DNA of 64,000 nucleotides from an uncultured bacterium (GCA_937879955.1 CALFMK010000001.1:361853-425852), one strand, 5' to 3'; shown: positions 1,353 through 13,228, counted from the stretch's first letter. Numbers and translations are program-made. Notes: generated from the letters alone by a model not told the origin.

Positions 1353-2570
1353 CTAGTGTCCGTGGCCCGGCACGATGATACCGTCGAAGATCGTCTTGTC
1401 CTCCGGCCCCGTGACCGTAAGCATGCCCCAGGCTCCGCGTTCCGTACGCGCGAGCGCATGATCGACGAGCATGTAGCTGCCTGGGACTTGGGTCACGAAT
1501 TCGACCGCGGTCGCTCCACCTGCTGGCACCGCGGTCGTCTGTATGTCTTCCGCAGGCGAAGAGAGTGACCCTTCCCGATACACGCGGTCGAATATCTCGC
1601 CGATGACATGGAAGGACGATACGAGGTTAACGCCGCCGTTACCGAAGTAGATGCGCACGCGATCCCCCACCTCGGCCTGCATGCGGTTGCTGAGCCCTCC
1701 CGTCTTTCCATTGAAGACGACGTATGTCGGCCTGCCATCGAGCATCGCCTGGGCATCGAAGAGCTGGAGTCCCTTGCGACCCATGCCGCCGCTCGCATAG
1801 AACTCGCCCTGCATGACGTAATACTCCTTATCGACCTCTGCGAGCCCCTCGGCCGGCTCCACGAGGATGAGTCCGTACATCCCGTGCGTCATATGATTCG
1901 GAACGTTCGGGGTCGCGCAATGATAGACGAACAGGCCTGGATTCAGAGCCTTGAACGTAAAGGTTGCAGATTCTCCGGGCGCGACCATGCTCGCGGACGC
2001 GCCTCCGCCCGGGCCGGTCACCGCGTGCAGGTCTATGTTGTGATGGTGCAGGCTGGTCGGATCATTATGGAGGGTCAGCTCGACCGTATCTCCTTCGCGC
2101 ACACGGAAGAACGGTCCGGGCACGGTACCGTCATAGGTCCAATAGTTCATGAGCACGCCGGGGGCAATCTCCGCTATCACTTCCTTCGCCGTAAGCTCGA
2201 GCTTCACGGTAGCAGGCTCGGTACGCCCCGTCGGCGGCGGCACGTCATTCGGATCGCGTGCGATATCCTCGACCTTCTCGAACGAATCGAAATGCGTGAA
2301 GAAGCTGATGACGTTCTGTACCGGCATCGTCGGTCCGGAAGCGGTGCCATAGGTCCGCATGGAGAGCGGGAACTCAACGCCATTGGGTAATCCGTTCGGC
2401 ACATAGAAGAACATGGAGACGCCGAGGAACACGATGACGGCGGTGATGCGCATCCAGAACGAGTGCAGCTGGCGCAGTGCGAGATAGATGAAAATCGCAG
2501 CGAATATGAAGGCGATAGCCAGTCCCGCTACCTGTACGAAATATGACCAGGTATAGGCAAATAGTTGCAT
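1353..2570 (-). CDS. nirK: copper-containing nitrite reductase NirK (multicopper oxidase type) with N-terminal membrane anchor
   Basis: Type-1 and type-2 copper ligand motifs are present (HHHNIDLHAV; HCATPNVPNHMTHGMYG). There are two cupredoxin domains and two predicted TM helices in the first ~60 aa. Confidence 0.85.
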   Translation of the reverse strand: MQLFAYTWSYFVQVAGLAIAFIFAAIFIYLALRQLHSFWMRITAVIVFLGVSMFFYVPNGLPNGVEFPLSMRTYGTASGPTMPVQNVISFFTHFDSFEKVEDIARDPNDVPPPTGRTEPATVKLELTAKEVIAEIAPGVLMNYWTYDGTVPGPFFRVREGDTVELTLHNDPTSLHHHNIDLHAVTGPGGGASASMVAPGESATFTFKALNPGLFVYHCATPNVPNHMTHGMYGLILVEPAEGLAEVDKEYYVMQGEFYASGGMGRKGLQLFDAQAMLDGRPTYVVFNGKTGGLSNRMQAEVGDRVRIYFGNGGVNLVSSFHVIGEIFDRVYREGSLSSPAEDIQTTAVPAGGATAVEFVTQVPGSYMLVDHALARTERGAWGMLTVTGPEDKTIFDGIIVPGHGH

Positions 2571-5585: not shown

Positions 5586-5617
5586 AAAAAGCCCCGTGCA
5601 AGACGGGGCTTTTTTTC
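5586..5617. terminator. bidirectional intrinsic terminator (AGCCCCGT-GCAAG-ACGGGGCT with A5 upstream and T7 downstream)
   Basis: Perfect 8-bp GC stem with a flanking poly-A and poly-T, lying between the convergent ends of the 4461..5513 and 5636..8152 genes. Confidence 0.7.
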
Positions 5618-5635
5618 CTTAGAGCAAGGCGTGGA

Positions 5636-8152
5636 CTATGCCGCGTCCTTCTTCATCGCATCGAGCTTCTCCTGAAGCTCCTTCACCTTCTCAAGGATGT
5701 CCTTGATGAGGGCTGCGCGAGCCTCTTCGGTCATGGTCGGTGCCGGGGTCGCTGCGGCGATTGCAGCCATGGTGAGCGGGCCGAAGAATCCGGTCGCCGG
5801 TACGCCATGCGCTGCCTGCCATGCCTTGAGAGCCTCGGTCGTCATAGGACCGAAGAATCCGGTAGGCGCAGCGATCTTGAGGAGACCTGCGTCGATCAGC
5901 ATCTGCTGGAGCGCGTTCACGTCAGCTCCGTTAGAACCAGCAGAGAGGTTCGCAGAGAAGTTGTACGTGGACGCACCGAGGACCTGGCCTCCGTCTACTC
6001 CGCCGGCAGTACCGGTGCCGGTGTTAGTGGCAGTCGAGCGGCTGCTACCGCCAGAGCGGCCGCGGCTCGGCTCTTCAGGACGAAGAACGTAGACACGTCC
6101 GGTAACGGCGCCGGAAACACGCTCGGAAGAGACATACTGACCGTTCGTATCGATCACCGACACGTTAGCTTTGGCGATGTCATCAACCCAGATCGCGTCG
6201 TTCTCATCATGCTTGCTTACGCCGTTTACGGTGAGCTCAGCGGCAGTCACGACGTTCACGCCACGATCGACGTTCACACCGTTCCAACCGTTACCAGAGG
6301 TGGTGAGGTTCGTGACGGTCACGGTCGAGCCATTCACGAGAAGTCCGGACTTGCCGCTACTCTTAACGGTTACATCCGTAAGAATCACGCCAGTCGTAGC
6401 ATATGCCTGGATACCGTGAACACCTGCCTTACCAACAACCGTGAGGTCGTTCACGGAGACGTTTGCTCCAGTGATGAGAACGACCGACCCCGTGAGAGCA
6501 CCGGAAGCCGTGATGGTCTTTCCGTTACCGTTGATAGTTACGGCGTGATCAGCCGTCACCTGAGACGAGACCGAGAAGGAGTCGCTAAGAGTGATGGCTG
6601 GGATATGAGCTGCGAGAGCCGCATTGAGCTCTGCCTCGCTCTTAACCGTGTTGAGGTAGTACGCCTTAGCAGGTGCCTGATCAACAACGGTGTACTGTGC
6701 ATCTGCGTTGACACTGCCCTTGTTGGTGTCATCAACGAAAATCGCAGGGCCGATATCGGAATGCGAGCTCGTACCAGTAACGGTAAGGACTGCTGGAGTC
6801 GTTACGCCAGAACCCTGGTCAACATTGATGCCATGCCAGTTGTTTCCAGACGTGGTGACATTGTTAACGGTAACGGTCGAGCCGTTGACCATGATTCCGG
6901 ACTTGTTCGCGTTCTTCGCGGTTACGCCATCGAGCGTGACATTGGTTGCGACATATGCCTGGATACCCTGAACCGGAAGACGCGCTGCATCTACCGTAAG
7001 GTTCTTGATAGTTACGTCGCTAGCCGTGACGAGTACTACAGAACCGGTGACTCCGGTAGCTGCGGTTACGGTATGGCCGTTACCCTCAATGGTTACCTTC
7101 TTGTCGACATTTACCGTCGTGGTCTCGGTGACGTCATGGTTGAGCACGATGGTGTCGCCAGCGTTTGCTGCAGCGATAGCAGCGCTAAGCGTATCGAATG
7201 AATTCGTTACACCCATGTCGCTCCACTGAACCGTGTAAGGACGGTTACCGAACACGCCATCGGCTGGAGTTCCCTCTGCACCGTAGTTGTACTGGTTAAG
7301 GATTACCTCCTTGATAGCGCTAGTGCCTGCGGTTCCATCGAGAGGCACCTGACTAAGCAGGTCACCGTTGATGTAGTAGTTCCAGTTTCCATCAGCGACC
7401 TCTACCCGAAGTACGTAGGTCTGACCAGGAACAGCTTCCATGACGGGAGTCCATGAGCCGCTACCCCTGGAGTCCCAGACACGGAATACTGGATCCTTAG
7501 TAAGACTTGCGCTGTTTCCAGCGGTATATCCAGCAGCGCTGGTGTAGTCGATGATTCCCCACTCACCTACTGCGCCGTTTCCGGTCGCCCAGAGGCCTGC
7601 ACGGACAGCCGTGTTCTCCCATGCCGGATCGATATAGAGAGATGCCTCTACGGAAGAAACATTGTTAAGCGAGGCCTTACGTCCTTCGGTGCGATAGAAC
7701 GCGCTTCCATCCTGCTGAGCATCAAGCGTACCGTCGATTACGACAACACCACCATTCCAAGAATCCGGTGCATGACGGTCAATCGCCCAACTACCATCGA
7801 TAGCAACAGCGCGATCGATAGTCACCTTAGCTGGCTCGGGAGCAACAACAGCATCGAGAGAGATATCATCAACTGCCGAGAAAAGGCTTGCGACAGAATT
7901 GATGACTTCCTCAACGATCCCTGCCTCTTCCTCGACAACGGGGGTCTCTTCCTGATTAACAATCTCTTCGGACTCCTCGATAGGAGCCTCTTCAACAACG
8001 GGAGTCTCGATGACAACATCAGAGATGACCTCTGGCGTCGTCTCGACGACCTCGGCTGGTGCCTCCTCAGCGAAGACAGCCGCCGGAACGAACGATGCGA
8101 CGAGCGCGAGAAGCGTGAGCGCGCTCGCGAGCTTGGTAAAGAAATTGGTCAT
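5636..8152 (-). CDS. large secreted right-handed beta-helix repeat protein with C-terminal peptidoglycan-binding domain
   Basis: Signal peptide and acidic linker, then a lectin/jelly-roll-like segment. Two ~170-aa internally duplicated blocks carry NGSTVTV.N.TTSGN.W.G.NVD parallel beta-helix rungs. The C-terminus has a PG_binding_1-like motif (LQQMLIDAGLL...TGFFGP.T..A.KAWQ). Confidence 0.7.
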   Translation of the reverse strand: MTNFFTKLASALTLLALVASFVPAAVFAEEAPAEVVETTPEVISDVVIETPVVEEAPIEESEEIVNQEETPVVEEEAGIVEEVINSVASLFSAVDDISLDAVVAPEPAKVTIDRAVAIDGSWAIDRHAPDSWNGGVVVIDGTLDAQQDGSAFYRTEGRKASLNNVSSVEASLYIDPAWENTAVRAGLWATGNGAVGEWGIIDYTSAAGYTAGNSASLTKDPVFRVWDSRGSGSWTPVMEAVPGQTYVLRVEVADGNWNYYINGDLLSQVPLDGTAGTSAIKEVILNQYNYGAEGTPADGVFGNRPYTVQWSDMGVTNSFDTLSAAIAAANAGDTIVLNHDVTETTTVNVDKKVTIEGNGHTVTAATGVTGSVVLVTASDVTIKNLTVDAARLPVQGIQAYVATNVTLDGVTAKNANKSGIMVNGSTVTVNNVTTSGNNWHGINVDQGSGVTTPAVLTVTGTSSHSDIGPAIFVDDTNKGSVNADAQYTVVDQAPAKAYYLNTVKSEAELNAALAAHIPAITLSDSFSVSSQVTADHAVTINGNGKTITASGALTGSVVLITGANVSVNDLTVVGKAGVHGIQAYATTGVILTDVTVKSSGKSGLLVNGSTVTVTNLTTSGNGWNGVNVDRGVNVVTAAELTVNGVSKHDENDAIWVDDIAKANVSVIDTNGQYVSSERVSGAVTGRVYVLRPEEPSRGRSGGSSRSTATNTGTGTAGGVDGGQVLGASTYNFSANLSAGSNGADVNALQQMLIDAGLLKIAAPTGFFGPMTTEALKAWQAAHGVPATGFFGPLTMAAIAAATPAPTMTEEARAALIKDILEKVKELQEKLDAMKKDAA

Positions 8153-8379: not shown

Positions 8380-9507
8380 ATGAATATCCGCACCGCAGCA
8401 TCCGCACTCTTCGCAGGTCTCCTGCTCTTCGCACCGTCCGTCTCCTTCGCCCAGGACTTCCCTGCCGTTGAGCAGCAGTACCTCGAGAAGGCGAAGGTTA
8501 TCGAGGCGACGCCTTCGGTAGACAAGACCGTTGAAGGCACGAGCGTCGTGACGAAGACGCAGACCCTCACCGTGAAGGTGCTCGAGGGCGTGGACGAGGG
8601 GAAGATCGTCTCCTTCGAGAACGACTACACCCAGCTCGAGACCGGAGACGTGTTCTACGTCCGGCACATCGTGGGTGGGTTCGACCTCGAGACCTGGTCC
8701 GTATCCGACCCGTACCGTCTCGACGTCCTCATCGGCATCGGTGTTATATTCCTCCTCCTGGTATTCCTCTTCGGCGGCATCCAGGGCGTCCGCGGCTTAG
8801 CCTCCCTCGCCGGCTCACTCGTGCTCATCTTCTACGTCCTCCTTCCAGGGATCCACGGCGGCATCTCCCCTATCCTCGTCTCGCTCGGCGTAGCGATGCT
8901 CATAATCGTGGCCGGGTCCTACATCACGCACGGCTTCACCAAGACGACGACCGCCGCCATGCTCGGCATGCTCGCGACCATCGTGATAACAGGGATCGGC
9001 ACCTATATAGCCATCCACATGGCACAGCTCTCCGGATTCACCTCCGACGAGAACGTCTACCTGAACTTCAGCTCGGACGGGACCATCGACATGATCGCGC
9101 TCCTGTTCGGCGGCATCCTGATCGGCCTCCTCGGCGTCCTCTACGACTGCGCCATCGGCCAGGCGGTCGCGGTCGAGGAGCTCTTCGCGGCCAGCAAGGA
9201 CTACACGCGCAGGCAGGTCTACCTACGGGGCCTTCGCATCGGGCGCGAACATATCGGCGCGCTCATCAACACGCTCGCTATCGCGTACGTGGGCGCGTCC
9301 CTCCCGCTCCTCCTCCTTCTCAAGCAGTCCACCGCGAGCCCGCTCTACATCCTCAACGGCGAGGTATTCGCCACGGAAATCATCCGCATCCTCATGAGCG
9401 GCATCGGCATCATCCTCGCCGTTCCCGTAACGACCCTCATCGCCACCACGATGCTGAAGGACGCGAAGCGCTCGGGCATCCCGGCACACTCCCACGCGCA
9501 CGGGTAG
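8380..9507 (+). CDS. YibE/F family membrane protein
   Basis: Signal peptide plus soluble N-domain, followed by about 7 TM helices with a YibE/F-like topology. Confidence 0.55.
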   Translation: MNIRTAASALFAGLLLFAPSVSFAQDFPAVEQQYLEKAKVIEATPSVDKTVEGTSVVTKTQTLTVKVLEGVDEGKIVSFENDYTQLETGDVFYVRHIVGGFDLETWSVSDPYRLDVLIGIGVIFLLLVFLFGGIQGVRGLASLAGSLVLIFYVLLPGIHGGISPILVSLGVAMLIIVAGSYITHGFTKTTTAAMLGMLATIVITGIGTYIAIHMAQLSGFTSDENVYLNFSSDGTIDMIALLFGGILIGLLGVLYDCAIGQAVAVEELFAASKDYTRRQVYLRGLRIGREHIGALINTLAIAYVGASLPLLLLLKQSTASPLYILNGEVFATEIIRILMSGIGIILAVPVTTLIATTMLKDAKRSGIPAHSHAHG

Positions 9508-9556
9508 CGCGATTGACTCCCCTGGCATTTGCTATAGAGTAGGGATAGCTCTATAC

Positions 9557-9569
9557 GCAATTTATTTGC
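9557..9569. promoter_or_regulatory. candidate Fur-family operator box GCAATTTATTTGC (copy 1, upstream of the CDF transporter)
   Basis: A near-palindromic AT-rich 13-mer, identical to a copy at 11947..11959 in the divergent promoter of the Fur-family regulator. Confidence 0.5.
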
Positions 9570-9594
9570 AGGTGCTATCCCGAAGGAGTGACTG

Positions 9595-10236
9595 ATGAAT
9601 ATCACCATGTCCGCAGACCACGCACACGACACCCCGAACAACCGCCATATCCCGATCTATACGTACGTATGGCTCTTGAGCCTGGGCATCGTGTCGCTTG
9701 AGCTCGCCGGATCCTGGTTCTCAGGAAGCCGCGCGCTCCTCGCTGACGTCGGCCACGTCTTGAGCGATACGCTGCTCGCGCTCGTGCCGCTCACGGCAGC
9801 GCTCTTCATGCGCGCGGGCGTGAGCAAGAAGCGCGTCGCGTTCCTGGCGAGCCTGGCGGCGGTCGCACTCCTCGTCTACGTCGGCCTGCACGTCGGTGGC
9901 GAGGCCTGGGAGGCGCTCATGGGCGAGGCGCATCACGAGCACGAGGTGAACGGCCTCATGCTGTTTGCGTTCTCAGGAGCGGCCGCGATCATGAACGTGT
10001 TCCAGCATCGCCTCCTCTCCCGGATCGATCCGGAGCATCACCATGGCGCGCACAAGGGGCTCCACTTCCACGTCCTCATGGATCTCGTGAAGAACCTCGT
10101 GCTCCCGGTGCTCGGTCTCCTCATCGCCTTCGAGCTCCTTCCTGACCACGCGGACCTCTGGGCAGCGCTCGCGATCGGCGGCCTCCTCATCGTCCGCGCG
10201 ATCATCCTGCTCGTGGGTATCCTGAAGCGCCGATAG
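9595..10236 (+). CDS. cation diffusion facilitator (CDF) family metal efflux transporter, TM domain only
   Basis: ALLADVGHVLSD and HGAHKGLHFHVLMDL motifs typical of CzcD/ZitB-type CDF TM helices II and V. It is His-rich and lacks the usual C-terminal cytoplasmic domain. Confidence 0.65.
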   Translation: MNITMSADHAHDTPNNRHIPIYTYVWLLSLGIVSLELAGSWFSGSRALLADVGHVLSDTLLALVPLTAALFMRAGVSKKRVAFLASLAAVALLVYVGLHVGGEAWEALMGEAHHEHEVNGLMLFAFSGAAAIMNVFQHRLLSRIDPEHHHGAHKGLHFHVLMDLVKNLVLPVLGLLIAFELLPDHADLWAALAIGGLLIVRAIILLVGILKRR

Positions 10237-10290
10237 GCACCGCAATGAATAACCCCCGTCGCTATCGCGACGGGGGTTTTATCTATTGCG

Positions 10291-10983
10291 CTACGCTGCG
10301 ACGCGCTCGAGCTTTCGCTCCCGGAGGAACGAGATGCCCGGGGCCGCGAGCGAGCGGAGGTCGGTATCGCGACGCGGGAGCCCGTACAGGATCCCCGCCA
10401 TCTTCTGATACGAGGCGATCTCCGCCCTACCCATGTCGAGGCTCCGATCCGTCCATCCGGCGTCCGAGAACGTCGGGACCCGGACGATCGCCGTACCTGC
10501 GGACTCGGCCAGCGAGCGCAGATGGTTCACCTGCGCGTACGCCGGAGAGCCGAGGATGTCGGCCTCGAAGCCGTCGCTGATGCAGCCGCAGTCGCAGACC
10601 AGGCGCAGCTGCATGCCGAGCTCGTCTCGCAGGACGCGGTCGAGCAGGTCCATGTTCCGCTCGGCGAGCGCCATGGACTCGAAGACCGTATGGAACGCGG
10701 CCATGTCCTCGGTCTGCACCCGCTCGAGCGTATCGAGGTCGAGTGCCGAGAACGGCATCATGGCCCACGGGTACATCCCGTGATCGCGGTGCTTGGCCCG
10801 GTCCATCATCTCGAGCACGGCGATGAGGACCGCCGGCTGCGGGACGTGATGGTCGGTGATGGCCGTCACGATCGAATCGATGGCCTTCGTCCCGAGGCAC
10901 TTCTGGTAGCGTGCGGCGATGAGCGGCACGTCGTCCGCGTGGAGCGGACGGTCGTAGGACGTTCCGGTAGCTGCATGGCACAT
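10291..10983 (-). CDS. hypothetical protein with CDCGC cysteine motif (possible metallocentre protein or assembly partner)
   Basis: Start chosen at the first Met after the 17-bp palindrome (alternative start at 11085). No recognisable family. Conserved-looking LVCDCGCISDGFEAD and HH/HRDH motifs. Downstream of the CooC-like ATPase on the same strand. Confidence 0.45.
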   Translation of the reverse strand: MCHAATGTSYDRPLHADDVPLIAARYQKCLGTKAIDSIVTAITDHHVPQPAVLIAVLEMMDRAKHRDHGMYPWAMMPFSALDLDTLERVQTEDMAAFHTVFESMALAERNMDLLDRVLRDELGMQLRLVCDCGCISDGFEADILGSPAYAQVNHLRSLAESAGTAIVRVPTFSDAGWTDRSLDMGRAEIASYQKMAGILYGLPRRDTDLRSLAAPGISFLRERKLERVAA

Positions 10984-11032
10984 GGCCAGCTCCTTATGGC
11001 TGCGTGAAAGGACAATGATGGCGCTGATGCAT

Positions 11033-11079
11033 CCATCGCCCGCGCCTCCTCGCTCTATACGCGGAGGCGCGGGCGATGG
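11033..11079. repeat. 17-bp perfect inverted repeat (CCATCGCCCGCGCCTCC / GGAGGCGCGGGCGATGG) with 13-nt loop
   Basis: Seen directly in the sequence. It lies between the CooC-like gene stop and the next gene start on the minus strand. There is no T-run, so it is not a canonical terminator. Confidence 0.7.
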
Positions 11080-11087
11080 GAACATCG

Positions 11088-11942
11088 CTAGAGCTTCGCC
11101 TTCTGTCGCTCCTCTTCGAACGCGCGCAGGCGCGCGAGCGTATCTTTCCCGTCTGCAGCCTTCTCCCGCAGGGTCGCGAGCATGGCCGTGCCTGCTGCGC
11201 GCGTCTCCTCGGAAAGGGCGGACATATCGTACGCGAGGAGCCCCGGATCGGCCGGGAGGCGACCGACGATACGGTCGCCCCACTCAGCATCGATCGCTTC
11301 CGTGAGCTCGGTCGCGCCCTGGACCTTGTTCACGACGACATAGAGCGGAAGTCCGGTGCGGTCGGCTATGCCCGCGACCTGCGCGAGCACGCGGATGCTG
11401 TTGCCATGCGGCTCGACCACCACGACCACGGCGTCCGCGCCGAGGAAGAGCCCGAAGTTCATCATGTCCGCGCCCGCGACGCCGTCGATGATCACGTCAG
11501 CACTGTTCCCTTCATCGAGGAGCGGGAGATAGTACTTGAGCGCGGCCGAATGCCCGTGCGCGCAGCGATCCGAGAACAGCACGTCCTCGCTACCGAGCCC
11601 GACCGCGATAAGGTCGACATTGTCCGAGACCGGCATGGAGACCTCGTCCGTGTACGGGTCCTTCGGCGACACCGTGAATGTCGGGAGTGCGCGGCCGTCG
11701 AGGACGATATCCTGCCAGCGTCGGTCCTCCCTCTGCCCCACCATCGCGCGGAACTCGTCATGACGGCGATGCATCGTCGGCGTCTCGCTCGTGACCGTAG
11801 CGCCGAGCAGGGACGCGAGGTCCATATTGTGGTCTGCATCGATGGCCAGGACCTTCCGTCCCTGTTCCTCGAGCAGCCGCGTTACGAGCCAGCTCACCGT
11901 ACTCTTCCCGCTCCCTCCCTTCCCGATGAATGCCAGTTTCAT
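11088..11942 (-). CDS. CooC/MinD-ParA-type P-loop ATPase (putative metallocentre insertion ATPase)
   Basis: Deviant Walker A (GKGGSGKST) then VLAIDADHNMDLASLLG, matching CooC-family nickel-insertion ATPases. Confidence 0.6.
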   Translation of the reverse strand: MKLAFIGKGGSGKSTVSWLVTRLLEEQGRKVLAIDADHNMDLASLLGATVTSETPTMHRRHDEFRAMVGQREDRRWQDIVLDGRALPTFTVSPKDPYTDEVSMPVSDNVDLIAVGLGSEDVLFSDRCAHGHSAALKYYLPLLDEGNSADVIIDGVAGADMMNFGLFLGADAVVVVVEPHGNSIRVLAQVAGIADRTGLPLYVVVNKVQGATELTEAIDAEWGDRIVGRLPADPGLLAYDMSALSEETRAAGTAMLATLREKAADGKDTLARLRAFEEERQKAKL

Positions 11943-11946
11943 ATAT

Positions 11947-11959
11947 GCAATTTATTTGC
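11947..11959. promoter_or_regulatory. candidate Fur-family operator box GCAATTTATTTGC (copy 2, divergent promoter between the CooC-like gene and the Fur-family gene)
   Basis: Identical 13-mer to 9557..9569, and the flanks also agree (ATA.GCAATTTATTTGC). Confidence 0.5.
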
Positions 11960-12015
11960 GTTTACTATACAGGGGAGGGGAAGTAATTGCAAACGGCTTG
12001 CGTTTGTTCCATACT

Positions 12016-12444
12016 ATGTCCATGAAAGCCACCGCGATCGATCCTGCGTCCCTCCTGCGCGAGGCCGGGCTCCGTGTCACCCCGGGCCGCCTCGAGCTCC
12101 TCAGCATCCTCGCGAGAGAGCCCAAGCCCCTCGCCGTCCACCAGATCGAGAAGAAGATGAAGGGCGCGCTCAACCAGGTCACGCTCTACCGCGCACTCGA
12201 GGCGCTCGAGAAGGCCGGCATCGTCTCGCGCGTGAACCTCGAGCACGACCACGCGCACTTCGAGCTCTCCGTAGGCCGTCCGCACCACCATCACGCGGTC
12301 TGCCGCGCCTGCGGGCTCGTGGAGGATATCGAGGTACCGCATGCGGCCCTGCCCCAGAAGGAAGCGGCGAAACAAGCGAAGGCGTTCGCGTCCATAGACC
12401 GCTACTCTCTCGAGTTCTTCGGCCTCTGCCGCGGCTGCGCGTAG
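12016..12444 (+). CDS. Fur-family metalloregulator (Fur/Zur/PerR-like)
   Basis: Winged-helix N-domain (LRVTPGRLELLSILA...VTLYRAL) and a C-terminal metal site (HHHHAVCRACG...CRGC). Start set at the first ATG after the divergent promoter. Confidence 0.75.
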   Translation: MSMKATAIDPASLLREAGLRVTPGRLELLSILAREPKPLAVHQIEKKMKGALNQVTLYRALEALEKAGIVSRVNLEHDHAHFELSVGRPHHHHAVCRACGLVEDIEVPHAALPQKEAAKQAKAFASIDRYSLEFFGLCRGCA

Positions 12445-12559: not shown

Positions 12560-13228
12560 ATGAGAATCCTAGTGATCGAGGACGAAGAGAAGATCTCCCG
12601 CTTCCTGCGGGACTCGTTCGAGGCCGAGTACTTCGCGGTAGACGTCGCGGAAGACGGCGAGCGCGGCTCTCTCTTCGCCCGCACCAACGAGTACGACCTC
12701 GTCGTGCTCGACAACATGCTCCCGAAGAAGGACGGCCTTCAGGTCTGCGAAGAGATCCGTGCAGCCGGGAAGACCATGCCCATCCTCGTCGTATCGGTGA
12801 AGACCGACGCGATGGACAAGGTCGACCTCCTGAACGCGGGCGCCGACGACTACCTCGCGAAGCCCTTCGTTCTCGAGGAGCTCCTCGCCCGCGCCCGCGC
12901 GCTCATGCGCCGCCCCGTCTCCATTGAGAGCGACGTGCTCACGGTCGAGGACATCACGCTCGATACCACGAGCGGCACCGCCAAGCGCGGCGACCGCGAC
13001 CTCGGACTCACCCGCAAGGAGTACATGCTCCTCCAGTACCTGATGCGCAACGAAGGCATCGTGCTCTCTCGCGGCATGATCCTGGAGCACGTGTGGGACA
13101 TGAGCGTGGACATCTTCTCGAACACCATCGAGTCTCACATCCTCTCGCTCCGCAAGAAGCTCAACGACATGGGACGCGAGCGCCTCATACAGACCGTATC
13201 GGGCCGAGGCTATCGCATCGGCGTCTAA
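12560..13228 (+). CDS. OmpR/PhoB-family response regulator
   Basis: Receiver domain (VIEDEE, DLVVLD, K-105 region) plus a C-terminal winged-helix (ILSLRKKL...SGRGYRIG). Confidence 0.85.
   Translation: MRILVIEDEEKISRFLRDSFEAEYFAVDVAEDGERGSLFARTNEYDLVVLDNMLPKKDGLQVCEEIRAAGKTMPILVVSVKTDAMDKVDLLNAGADDYLAKPFVLEELLARARALMRRPVSIESDVLTVEDITLDTTSGTAKRGDRDLGLTRKEYMLLQYLMRNEGIVLSRGMILEHVWDMSVDIFSNTIESHILSLRKKLNDMGRERLIQTVSGRGYRIGV

Follow-up and report, generated by a model that had tools for sequence, protein, structure and literature searches.

A conserved palindromic box marks a candidate Zur-type regulon around a Fur-family regulator gene in Patescibacteria

Results

The DNA analysed here is a 64,000-nucleotide stretch from an uncultured bacterium (hereafter the window), with a measured G+C content of 61% instead of the 65% assumed for the genome in an earlier note on this sequence. 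The part of interest contains a YibE/F-family gene, a CDF-like transporter gene, a two-gene operon encoding an ATPase and the Cys/His-rich protein CysP, and the gene for a Fur-family regulator (fur), together with three copies of a palindromic box. Scores of the boxes refer to the position weight matrix (PWM) described below.

8380..9507, plus strand: YibE/F-family membrane protein gene (Pfam PF07907, 212 bits), with no box of its own in the window
9513..9540, plus strand: predicted sigma-70-type CDF promoter (promoter scan), -35 TTGACT at 9513-9518, 16-nt spacer, -10 TAGAGT at 9535-9540
9552..9574 (core 9557-9569): Box A, TATACGCAATTTATTTGCAGGTG, 24.3 bits, at about +5 to +27 of the CDF promoter
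9595..10236, plus strand: CDF-like transporter gene, 213 aa (PF01545)
10251..10278: likely bidirectional terminator where the CDF and CysP genes converge, a G+C-rich hairpin with a 12-bp stem and a trailing T run (terminator scan)
10291..10983, minus strand: CysP gene, 230 aa, Cys/His-rich product, second gene of the ATPase operon
10984..11087, minus strand: spacer between the two genes of the operon, containing an AAGGAG Shine-Dalgarno sequence ahead of CysP and a hairpin of very high stability (-59.3 kcal/mol by RNA folding, z = -6.4)
11088..11942, minus strand: MinD/ParA/CooC-like P-loop ATPase gene, 284 aa, with C-x-H in place of the CxC of CooC1
11942..11964 (core 11947-11959): Box B, TATATGCAATTTATTTGCGTTTA, 34.1 bits, the best site of the window
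11964..11969, minus strand: predicted ATPase -10 TATAGT (promoter scan, TTGCAA-17-TATAGT)
11984..12006 (core 11989-12001): Box C, TAATTGCAAACGGCTTGCGTTTG, 23.8 bits, TTGCAA-ACGGC-TTGCGT
12010..12015, plus strand: predicted fur -10 CATACT, read from the sequence, 17 nt downstream of TTGCAA, with 6 nt left to the ATG at 12022
12016..12444, plus strand: Fur-family regulator gene, 142 aa from the ATG at 12016 (PF01475, 75 bits)

The earlier note had reported an identical 13-mer, GCAATTTATTTGC, in two promoters, and an exact search of the whole 64 kb window recovered just these two copies, at 9557-9569 and 11947-11959. The 13-mer is a 6-1-6 dyad (GCAATT-T-ATTTGC) with a single mispair, and both copies are flanked by ATA[C/T], in agreement with the flanks described before. 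As the note had also stated, the first copy lies 25 nt 5' of the CDF start (ATG at 9595), while the second is located in the divergent promoter between the CooC-like ATPase and the Fur-family regulator, 4 nt from the ATPase ATG (11942, minus strand). Comparison of related genomes showed the 13-mer to be the central part of a palindrome with the consensus tAAATGCAA-N5-TTGCATTTa, in which the G+C-containing half-sites ATGCAA and TTGCAT are conserved and the A+T-rich centre is largely variable. The box is less A+T-rich than the note had assumed, with inner bases GCAA and TTGC. The palindrome has the same TG...CA ends and the same centre as the 7-1-7 register of the Fur family, and the positions at +/-1 of the centre have a T/A preference of 0.67, so that a 7-1-7 reading (TGCAAnT-n-AnTTGCA) is also possible.

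Searching the window for the 13-mer with up to three mismatches gave 7 matches against 4.6 expected, which is not above chance and made this search uninformative; we therefore used a 23-bp PWM derived from orthologous promoters, trained on other genomes only (89 ATPase-upstream sites). This matrix identified three sites in the 64 kb (34.1, 24.3 and 23.8 bits), the next non-site reaching 10.9 bits, and all three fall in the two promoter regions. At a threshold of at least 20 bits, the three observed hits compare with 0.015 expected from local shuffles of the window, a result that speaks against the scattering over random positions that the note had named as a refutation. Across about 1 Mb of related loci, we obtained 124 hits of at least 16 bits, a total that includes the 89 training sites, against about one in shuffled sequence. 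The significance of the box thus rests on the exact pair and on the comparative matrix. The same scan extended the original two-box picture, in which both reported boxes were correct, by Box C (11984-12006), which had been overlooked. A look-alike near the nirK start, ATGCAACTATTTGCC (2556-2570, minus strand), exists as a sequence but was rejected as a site, having a spacer of 4 nt instead of 5 and a PWM score below 8 bits; the ORF at this position encodes a multicopper-oxidase-family protein.

Within the divergent promoter region, Box B occupies the stretch from the -10 element to the ATG of the ATPase gene. Box C has the core GCAAACGGCTTGC, and the palindromic TTGCAA within it (11987-11992) could act as -35 hexamer for both divergent promoters. 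For the other two transcripts, the predicted starts give the ATPase a leader of about 15 nt and place the CDF +1 near 9547. The putative assignment of CATACT as the fur -10 was made by inspection, and the arrangement TTGCAA-16/17-TATACT-6-ATG also occurs in the related loci L081 and L090; the ATG at 12022 is likelier than that at 12016 to be the start of a leaderless fur mRNA.

The box and fur genes co-occur across Patescibacteria, in matching promoters of many uncultured members. Of 58 fur homologues, 46 have a box in the 200 bp preceding the gene and 12 do not; for the 81 ATPase homologues, the corresponding numbers are 50 and 31. All eight CDF orthologues examined (that of the window and those of L083-L089) have one directly upstream. 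These counts bear out the conservation in orthologous promoters that the earlier note had proposed to check. In six of the seven CDF orthologue loci outside the window the box is preceded by a promoter of the form TTGAC[T/C]-N16/17-TA[G/A][A/G]GT, with no such match in L085, and in six of the eight orthologues it lies just 3' of the -10 element, across the start site. Among 80 loci that encode an ATPase homologue, fur and the ATPase gene are divergent in 32, most of which carry two boxes at the stereotyped positions of about -17 and about -62 and have kept the fur-proximal box as ACGCAA-N5-TTGCAAT. The ATPase-proximal box is the upstream box closest to the ATG in most related loci and abuts the ATG exactly in 15. 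In several relatives, the CDF gene is co-transcribed with fur. Most related loci have a YibE/F homologue at a distance of a few kb from fur, often directly downstream on the same strand; only 1 of 34 YibE/F genes has a box of its own, and YibE/F may be tied to the regulon through this synteny.

Several further gene families lie behind the same box in relatives. A znuA / ABC_tran / ABC-3 cassette is located beside fur in L081, L082 and L090, whose Fur proteins are 67-87% identical, and in NCBIfam the cassette best matches AztC and AztB, components of a zinc transporter. In addition, boxes precede ZnuA in L039, ZIP transporters in L009, L030, L058 and L064, and COG0523 GTPases in L002, L004, L005, L013 and L029, one box-adjacent COG0523 protein scoring 523 bits on the ZigA zinc-metallochaperone model. 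The MntC (manganese) score of the L082 binding protein nearly equals its AztC score, MntC is the top hit of the L039 protein, and an arginase-family (Mn enzyme) gene adjoins one box, in L031. The box-adjacent families scanned comprised ZnuA, ZIP, COG0523, ArsP-type permease, arginase-family and short Fur-like proteins; nickel or iron uptake genes and sodF-type targets were not found among the box-adjacent genes scanned in this way, and ribosomal-protein paralogues were not seen among the targets.

The regulator matches PF01475 over residues 16-122 with 75.0 bits (cut-off 23.1), which places it in the Fur family, and a 99%-identical protein of 142 aa is present in public data. Among 34 homologues, Y58, R59, C96, C99, C138 and C141 are invariant, providing the DNA-reading Tyr-Arg pair of the recognition helix and the two CxxC motifs of the structural zinc site; Y58/R59 and the first CxxC align with Y56/R57 and C93/C96 of Nur. 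H81, E83 and H90-H93 are also invariant, and the candidate sensing site is composed of His and Glu only, without Cys, whereas several characterised Zur proteins carry Cys in this site. No NCBIfam equivalog cut-off was reached (Fur 57, PerR 51 and Zur 28 bits), the Zur model PRK11639 having a cut-off of 167 bits, and the protein is about equidistant from the solved Fur, Nur, PerR and Zur structures, so that the metal is not assignable from the protein sequence. In a HMMER alignment to 3eyy, H70 and H72 of Nur, which together with H126 have been described as nickel-site residues (PMC2691836), are replaced by R72 and N74. On these replacements, Nur orthology was rejected.

The CDF-like protein scores 53.1 bits against PF01545 (cut-off 26.6) and has the six-helix membrane domain. 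It consists of this domain only, the chain stopping right after TM6, and the match to TIGR01297 (47 bits, cut-off 82) covers profile positions 7-190 of 285, in line with a missing cytoplasmic C-terminal domain. Its orthologues, which were gathered via Fur homologues (a metagenome scan with the CDF protein gave only two loci), are 201-221 aa long, and in their alignment an HxxxD motif is invariant in TM2 and in TM5 and a His-rich loop is present. An HD-HD site combined with a His-rich loop is typical of zinc CDFs, and we counted this pattern in favour of zinc.

The ATPase can be aligned with CooC1 over its full length and displays a deviant Walker A motif and the MinD/ParA-type fold, and annotation pipelines label it 'CO dehydrogenase nickel-insertion accessory protein CooC1'. 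However, the 'CYC' of CooC1 aligns with 'CAH' in the ATPase, and the C-[AS]-H motif is near-invariant: C and H are present in 79 of 79 homologues, with one locus having CPH. No CODH gene was noticed in a non-systematic look through the gene lists of the window and the related loci. The ATPase is the commonest target of the box and is often paired with CysP, which has a confident predicted structure but no fold neighbour in the PDB and no Pfam, NCBIfam or PDB sequence match.

Discussion

Our analysis suggests that the 13-mer is most likely the centre of a conserved operator of 17-23 bp for the adjoining Fur-family regulator. We consider it probable that the protein encoded at 12016-12444 is a Zur-type repressor that binds this palindrome when loaded with metal, the metal most probably being zinc. 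In such a system, the metal-loaded dimer would occupy tAAATGCAA-N5-TTGCATTTa at three places: at Box C, overlapping the palindromic -35 TTGCAA common to the back-to-back fur and ATPase promoters; at Box B, over the start site of the ATPase-CysP operon and the short leader that follows; and at Box A, in the CDF promoter from about +5 to about +27. Under these conditions fur, the ATPase/CysP operon and the CDF-like transporter would all be switched off, and metal shortage would release all three. The boxes overlap a -35 element or a transcription start and thus occupy repressor positions, and the boxes in the fur promoters themselves are the usual signature of autoregulation. Likewise, repression of the CDF gene is predicted from the location of its box after the -10 element and across the start, and from its co-transcription with fur in several relatives. 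The suggestion in the earlier note that the regulator controls itself, the CDF transporter and the ATPase/Cys-protein pair is supported, as a prediction, by the positions and the conservation of the boxes.

That note had left the type of regulon as Fur/Zur, and the znuABC, ZIP and ZigA-like COG0523 genes behind the same box in relatives favour the Zur option; zinc-acquisition genes are present in the regulon of the relatives and not in the window. ZnuABC, ZupT and COG0523 proteins form the canonical Zur regulon (PMC6103462, PMC2770081), and two boxes per promoter are also known for Zur targets (PMC6103462). The sites, their specificity, their conservation in orthologous promoters and their co-occurrence with fur are observed, and from these we infer binding by this regulator, repression and zinc as the signal.

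The same operator and regulator could instead respond to nickel, as in a Nur-like system, to manganese (Mur-like) or to iron, a reading that we regard as unlikely. The GCAA-N5-TTGC core lines up with the Nur box of Streptomyces, tTGCaa-N5-ttGCAA (PMC2691836), yet H70 and H72 of Nur are replaced here by R72 and N74, and genes for nickel or iron uptake or of the sodF type are absent among the scanned box-adjacent genes. The commonest target is annotated as nickel-insertion CooC1, but it has C-x-H and no CooC CxC. The good MntC scores of the ZnuA-family proteins, the arginase-family gene beside the L031 box and a sensing site restricted to His and Glu could all be accommodated by another metal, whereas the 523-bit ZigA-like COG0523 targets and the HD-HD site and His-rich loop of the CDF protein conform to zinc. 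ZnuA-family, ZIP and CDF proteins may also carry manganese or iron.

It is far less probable that the box is bound by another factor, such as the OmpR-type response regulator whose gene lies just 3' of fur, and that the link to fur is incidental. In the window and the nearest relatives, genes for a response regulator and a histidine kinase lie on either side of fur, but the regulator is found in only 1 of 80 ATPase-anchored loci, within the clade of the window itself, while boxes are present in most, and 46 of 58 fur genes have the box in their own promoter. Moreover, OmpR-family proteins typically bind direct repeats, and the box is palindromic. On the basis of co-occurrence, we rejected the response regulator as binder. 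We attach equally little weight to the notion that the box is no operator and represents a promoter or leader feature (-35/-10 context or a 5' leader RNA hairpin) or the remnant of a local duplication. TTGCAA of Box C is at the same time a -35 hexamer, transcription would run through Boxes A and B, and the 5-nt spacers of A and B are identical and elsewhere variable, a coincidence with a chance of about 0.5% (estimated from PWM column frequencies) that hints at within-genome copying. Against this, the hairpin has 4 bp and -2.5 kcal/mol, no better than shuffles, Rfam gave no match, and the half-sites are conserved as sequence, without compensatory changes; an RNA element was rejected on account of the missing Rfam hit and the insignificant hairpin. 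In distant genomes, the box lies at the -35, in the spacer or at +1 before unrelated gene families, which fits a protein-binding site better than a promoter element or a leftover of duplication.

Taking the Zur-type repressor as the preferred interpretation, the system would be a standard Fur-family repressor/operator system in kind and an ordinary metal regulon, here in Patescibacteria. Like the Zur regulons of Bacillus, Streptomyces, Mycobacterium and E. coli, it would involve autoregulation, a dimeric Fur-family regulator carrying two CxxC motifs, palindromic boxes over the -35 or +1, sometimes two per promoter, and, in relatives, znuABC-type importers, ZIP transporters and COG0523 GTPases as targets. 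In contrast to these regulons, the protein reaches the cut-off of no Zur model, a CooC-like ATPase takes the place of COG0523 as the most frequent target, and a CDF gene lies at a repressor-type site. ATGCAA-N5-TTGCAT is also not known to resemble the Bacillus and actinobacterial Zur boxes. From the E. coli Zur box, TRWNAYRWTATAWYRTNWCA (PMC6103462), it differs as well.

With the 6-5-6 Nur box of Streptomyces coelicolor (PMC2691836), the box shares the GCAA-N5-TTGC core, the 11-bp spacing of GC dinucleotides, a largely non-conserved centre and a regulator of the Fur family. The outer bases give ATGCAA / TTGCAT here and TTGCAA in Nur, the centre has a partial T/A preference here, and, unlike Nur, the regulator has no nickel site and its targets are not nik or sodF. 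A Nur-like arrangement of half-sites may thus be possible without the Nur nickel site. The classical Fur, PerR and Zur boxes are of the 7-1-7 type, for example TGATAATnATTATCA in Bacillus subtilis, and are bound by one Fur-family dimer. They have in common with the present box a 15-bp palindrome, TG...CA ends and a central T-n-A, with inner bases ATAA / TTAT where the box has GCAA / TTGC.

The weight matrix of the box can be used directly to locate genes of metal homeostasis in hundreds of genomes from uncultured organisms, and our full-text search for Zur and zinc, which was incomplete in coverage, found no report of a transcriptional regulon in Patescibacteria (candidate phyla radiation). 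It also suggests a testable role in metal homeostasis for three uncharacterised families, namely the C-x-H ATPase, the orphan-fold CysP and YibE/F; literature searches on YibE/F function and on CooC in Zur regulons returned nothing relevant. COG0523 members are standard Zur targets (PMC6103462, PMC2770081). The ATPase resembles CooC and COG0523/ZigA proteins in being a SIMIBI-class P-loop NTPase whose metal-binding motif would lie at the dimer interface, but this motif is C-x-H and not CxC, and the protein is not a G3E GTPase. Across the ATPase dimer, C-x-H could form a Cys2His2 zinc site. More tentatively, and as a reading that is less likely than not, we put forward that the main Zur-like output in Patescibacteria may be this ATPase instead of COG0523, that together with CysP it may constitute a new chaperone/client system for zinc or another metal, and that the CDF protein, lacking a cytoplasmic domain, and YibE/F may be co-regulated with uptake genes or linked to them genetically and so act in acquisition, not efflux.

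CDF genes under Zur control have been described before: at zitB of S. coelicolor and XC2976 of Xanthomonas, the box lies 5' of the -35 and Zn-Zur activates (PMC5472717, PMC6103462). The present locus resembles these in having a CDF gene with a box for a Fur-family regulator, here a putatively zinc-sensing one, whereas the box in the window lies just past the -10, opposite to the activation logic of Zur at zitB. A zinc-type CDF, normally an exporter, shares a repressor-position operator with uptake genes, which raises the concrete puzzle of a CDF gene regulated in the fashion of an importer.

Results

A palindromic box recurs in Patescibacteria promoters

As the earlier note had reported, the 13-mer GCAATTTATTTGC stands in two promoters (9557-9569 and 11947-11959) with agreeing flanks (ATA[C/T]); the window contains no other exact copy. 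The first copy ends 25 nt upstream of the start codon (ATG, 9595) for a CDF protein of 213 aa (Cation_efflux family); the second lies in the divergent promoter between a 142-aa PF01475 Fur-family gene (fur) and a 284-aa MinD/ParA/CooC-like ATPase, ending 4 nt from the ATG (11942) of the latter gene (11088-11942, minus strand). With three mismatches allowed, the 13-mer gives 7 matches in the window versus 4.6 expected, and the loosely matched sequence is therefore uninformative.

We fetched 80 loci via homologues of the ATPase, which belong mainly to Patescibacteria metagenome-assembled genomes (Parcubacteria/Paceibacterota; some labelled Saccharibacteria), and ten additional loci from the CDF protein and from close homologues of the Fur protein, which has many homologues at 45-99% identity. 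Of the 80 loci, 32 have fur and the ATPase gene in divergent orientation with a spacer of about 90-130 bp. Two copies of the palindrome are present in most of these spacers: the first directly adjoins the ATPase ATG (about -17), and the second is close to fur (about -62). From 89 such sites, with no window sequence included, we built a symmetrised 23-bp weight matrix with the consensus tAAATGCAA-N5-TTGCATTTa, in which G, C, A and A hardly vary; in the centre, only positions +6 (T) and +8 (A) show a preference (0.67 each). Instead of the random scatter that the earlier note had warned against, the matrix finds exactly three sites in the window, the next score being 10.9. One of them, box C, is absent from that note.

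Predicted operator boxes in the window
Box A, 9552-9574, CDF promoter, 24.3 bits
Box B, 11942-11964, ATPase promoter, 34.1 bits
Box C, 11984-12006, fur-proximal, TTGCAA-ACGGC-TTGCGT, 23.8 bits

Locally shuffled windows contain 0.015 matches of at least 20 bits, and all loci together yield 124 sites of at least 16 bits, the 89 training sites included, versus about 1 in shuffles. The weaker look-alike listed previously at the nirK start is present in sequence, but its spacer is 4 nt long and it does not pass the matrix, which rules it out as an operator; the ORF so named (1353-2570, minus strand) encodes a multicopper-oxidase-family protein (Cu-oxidase_3 / _2). The G+C content of the window is 61%, not 65%.

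The box precedes metal-handling genes

Calling a box at 16 bits or more and at most 200 bp upstream of a gene, we found that the conservation in orthologous promoters proposed earlier as a check holds for fur (46/58 homologues), for the ATPase (50/81) and for the CDF gene, where one strong box lies directly upstream in all eight orthologues (window and L083 to L089 of the related loci) and follows a conserved TTGACT-N16/17-TAGAGT promoter in six of them. The Cys/His-rich protein CysP, encoded by the second gene of the ATPase operon, has its own box in 3 of 10 homologues, the remainder following the ATPase. Short Fur-like genes and several CysP-resembling Cys-cluster proteins are also preceded by a box, as are the following.

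Further genes under the box in related loci
COG0523 GTPases: L002, L004, L005, L013, L029
ZIP transporters: L009, L030, L058, L064
Weaker ZIP-like proteins: L014, L015, L021, L026
ZnuA: L039
ArsP-type permease: L029

With the model of the zinc metallochaperone ZigA, the COG0523 protein of L002 reaches 523 bits, and the best matches of the L082 binding protein and permease are AztC and AztB, which are zinc transporter components; all these scores fall below the curated cut-offs. In L029, the divergent COG0523 GTPase and ArsP_1-family permease (PF03773) genes share a single box (11179-11201), which hints that the permease is a member of the same metal regulon. Short Fur-family genes of 109-119 aa with their own boxes stand immediately upstream of the ATPase in L016, L057 and L058 (each at about 5600-5650) and in L070 (182-204), and appear to form a truncated regulator branch.

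The closest relatives of the window (Fur 67-87% identical) share its flanking genes: NTP-transferase, CAP and pectate-lyase-like genes with yibEF on one side, and response regulator, methyltransferase, AdoMet decarboxylase and kinase genes on the other. Between yibEF and fur (window 9508-12015) lies a variable cassette, and the operator is kept in each version.

Cassette versions in the closest relatives
CDF alone: L083, L084, L085, L087, L089
znuA / ABC_tran / ABC-3: L081, L082, L090
CDF + CysP + ATPase: window

A YibE/F homologue (window 8380-9507; PF07907) is found within a few kb of fur in most loci (about 35 of L001-L090), often immediately 3' of fur on the same strand across Patescibacteria loci, and only 1 of 34 such genes has an upstream box. 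A literature search for YibE/F function found nothing; its neighbourhood suggests a metal-related membrane function. The response-regulator gene contains a weak guanidine-II riboswitch match (12685-12740, plus strand; 22.7 bits, E = 0.2, gathering score 32). A guanidinoacetate-methyltransferase-like gene lies two genes downstream of it; the match is probably due to chance.

Promoter geometry suggests repression

On the minus strand, promoter scanning predicts an ATPase promoter composed of TTGCAA (11992-11987), 17 nt and TATAGT (11969-11964). Box B spans the predicted -10 element to the ATG, and thus the start site and the leader of about 15 nt, and the box ends exactly at the ATPase ATG in 15 related loci. 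On the plus strand, the same palindromic TTGCAA (11987-11992) is followed by 17 nt, CATACT (12010-12015), 6 nt and an ATG at 12022. L081 and L090 show this arrangement too (TTGCAA-16/17-TATACT-6-ATG), and the fur mRNA is probably leaderless, starting from this ATG rather than from 12016. TTGCAA within box C is thus a possible -35 element of both promoters, a layout common in related divergent spacers. Given this layout on both strands, a regulator bound to box C would occlude the -35 hexamer common to the two back-to-back promoters and block both. Box A lies at about +5 to +27 of the predicted CDF promoter TTGACT-16-TAGAGT (9513-9540). All three boxes occupy repressor positions, a geometry from which we infer repression. 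Paired boxes in a single promoter, the first at the -35 element and the second at the -10 element or start site, have precedent among Zur targets (PMC6103462).

Between the convergent CDF and CysP genes lies a hairpin (10251-10278), so that CDF forms a transcription unit of its own, ATPase and CysP a second, and fur with any genes that follow it a third. Judging by its spacing, the ATPase leader appears to be devoid of a Shine-Dalgarno sequence; AAGGAG / GGAG is present for CysP and the window's CDF. The ATPase-CysP spacer (10984-11087, minus strand) forms a very stable hairpin (-59.3 kcal/mol and z = -6.4 for the entire spacer) whose 17-bp G+C-rich stem is not followed by a T run. This intercistronic hairpin may serve in processing, stability or attenuation; L004, L007 and L059 have a box at the corresponding position instead.

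Discussion

Our comparison of promoters and target genes supports the Fur-family operator and regulon proposed in the earlier note and sharpens it to one that is conserved across Patescibacteria and most probably of Zur type. The box is best read as the operator of a Zur-like regulator because znuABC, ZIP, COG0523 and an autoregulated fur make up the canonical Zur regulon (PMC6103462; PMC2770081). The Fur protein itself scores under every cut-off of the Fur, PerR and Zur models and is about equally distant from the solved Fur, Nur, PerR and Zur structures, and is therefore not assignable by sequence; it carries two CxxC pairs, and its invariant H81, E83 and H90-H93 are candidate sensing ligands.

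With its weak T/A preference beside the centre, the box is described equally well as a 7-1-7 Fur-family box, TGCAAnT-n-AnTTGCA. It differs from the known Zur boxes of Bacillus and actinobacteria. It is also unlike the E. coli Zur consensus (PMC6103462). Its core, GCAA-N5-TTGC, has the sequence and spacing of the Nur box of Streptomyces, tTGCaa-N5-ttGCAA, a 6-5-6 motif that is reported to be unique to Nur (PMC2691836). The regulator has R72 and N74 in place of the Nur nickel ligands H70 and H72, which rules out Nur orthology.

That the same predicted regulon senses another metal seems to us rather improbable, although ZnuA-family, ZIP and CDF proteins carry Mn or Fe too, MntC models score near AztC for L082 and top for L039, and annotation names the ATPase a nickel-insertion protein. 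A different protein is unlikely to bind the box, since the adjoining OmpR-type regulator is restricted to the window's own clade, and a role as an RNA element is likewise unlikely, its hairpin comprising just 4 bp (-2.5 kcal/mol) and the Rfam search being without a match. Boxes A and B share the 5-nt spacer TTTAT, which varies in other genomes and in box C; we estimate the chance of this identity from the matrix frequencies at about 0.5%. Operator copying by duplication within this genome may account for the common spacer, but this would leave the conservation in other genomes unexplained.

In our view, greater novelty attaches to the uncharacterised proteins under this most probably Zur-type regulon and to a paradox concerning the CDF protein. 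This protein combines an HxxxD + HxxxD site with a His-rich loop, and the cytoplasmic domain is missing from all of the orthologues. In known Zur-CDF links, Zur activates from a box that precedes the -35 element (PMC5472717, PMC6103462), whereas the CDF box here coincides with the start site, and several relatives have CDF and fur overlapping within one operon. We see three readings: CDF may function in acquisition, it may be co-expressed with fur for a different reason, or the regulator logic may differ at the CDF promoter. The ATPase aligns with CooC1 over its full length (E = 4e-9) but has C-x-H at residues 127-129 in place of the CxC nickel/zinc site; C-x-H is invariant among 79 homologues, the family also has an invariant IDADHNMDL motif, and an ATPase dimer could form a Cys2His2 site.
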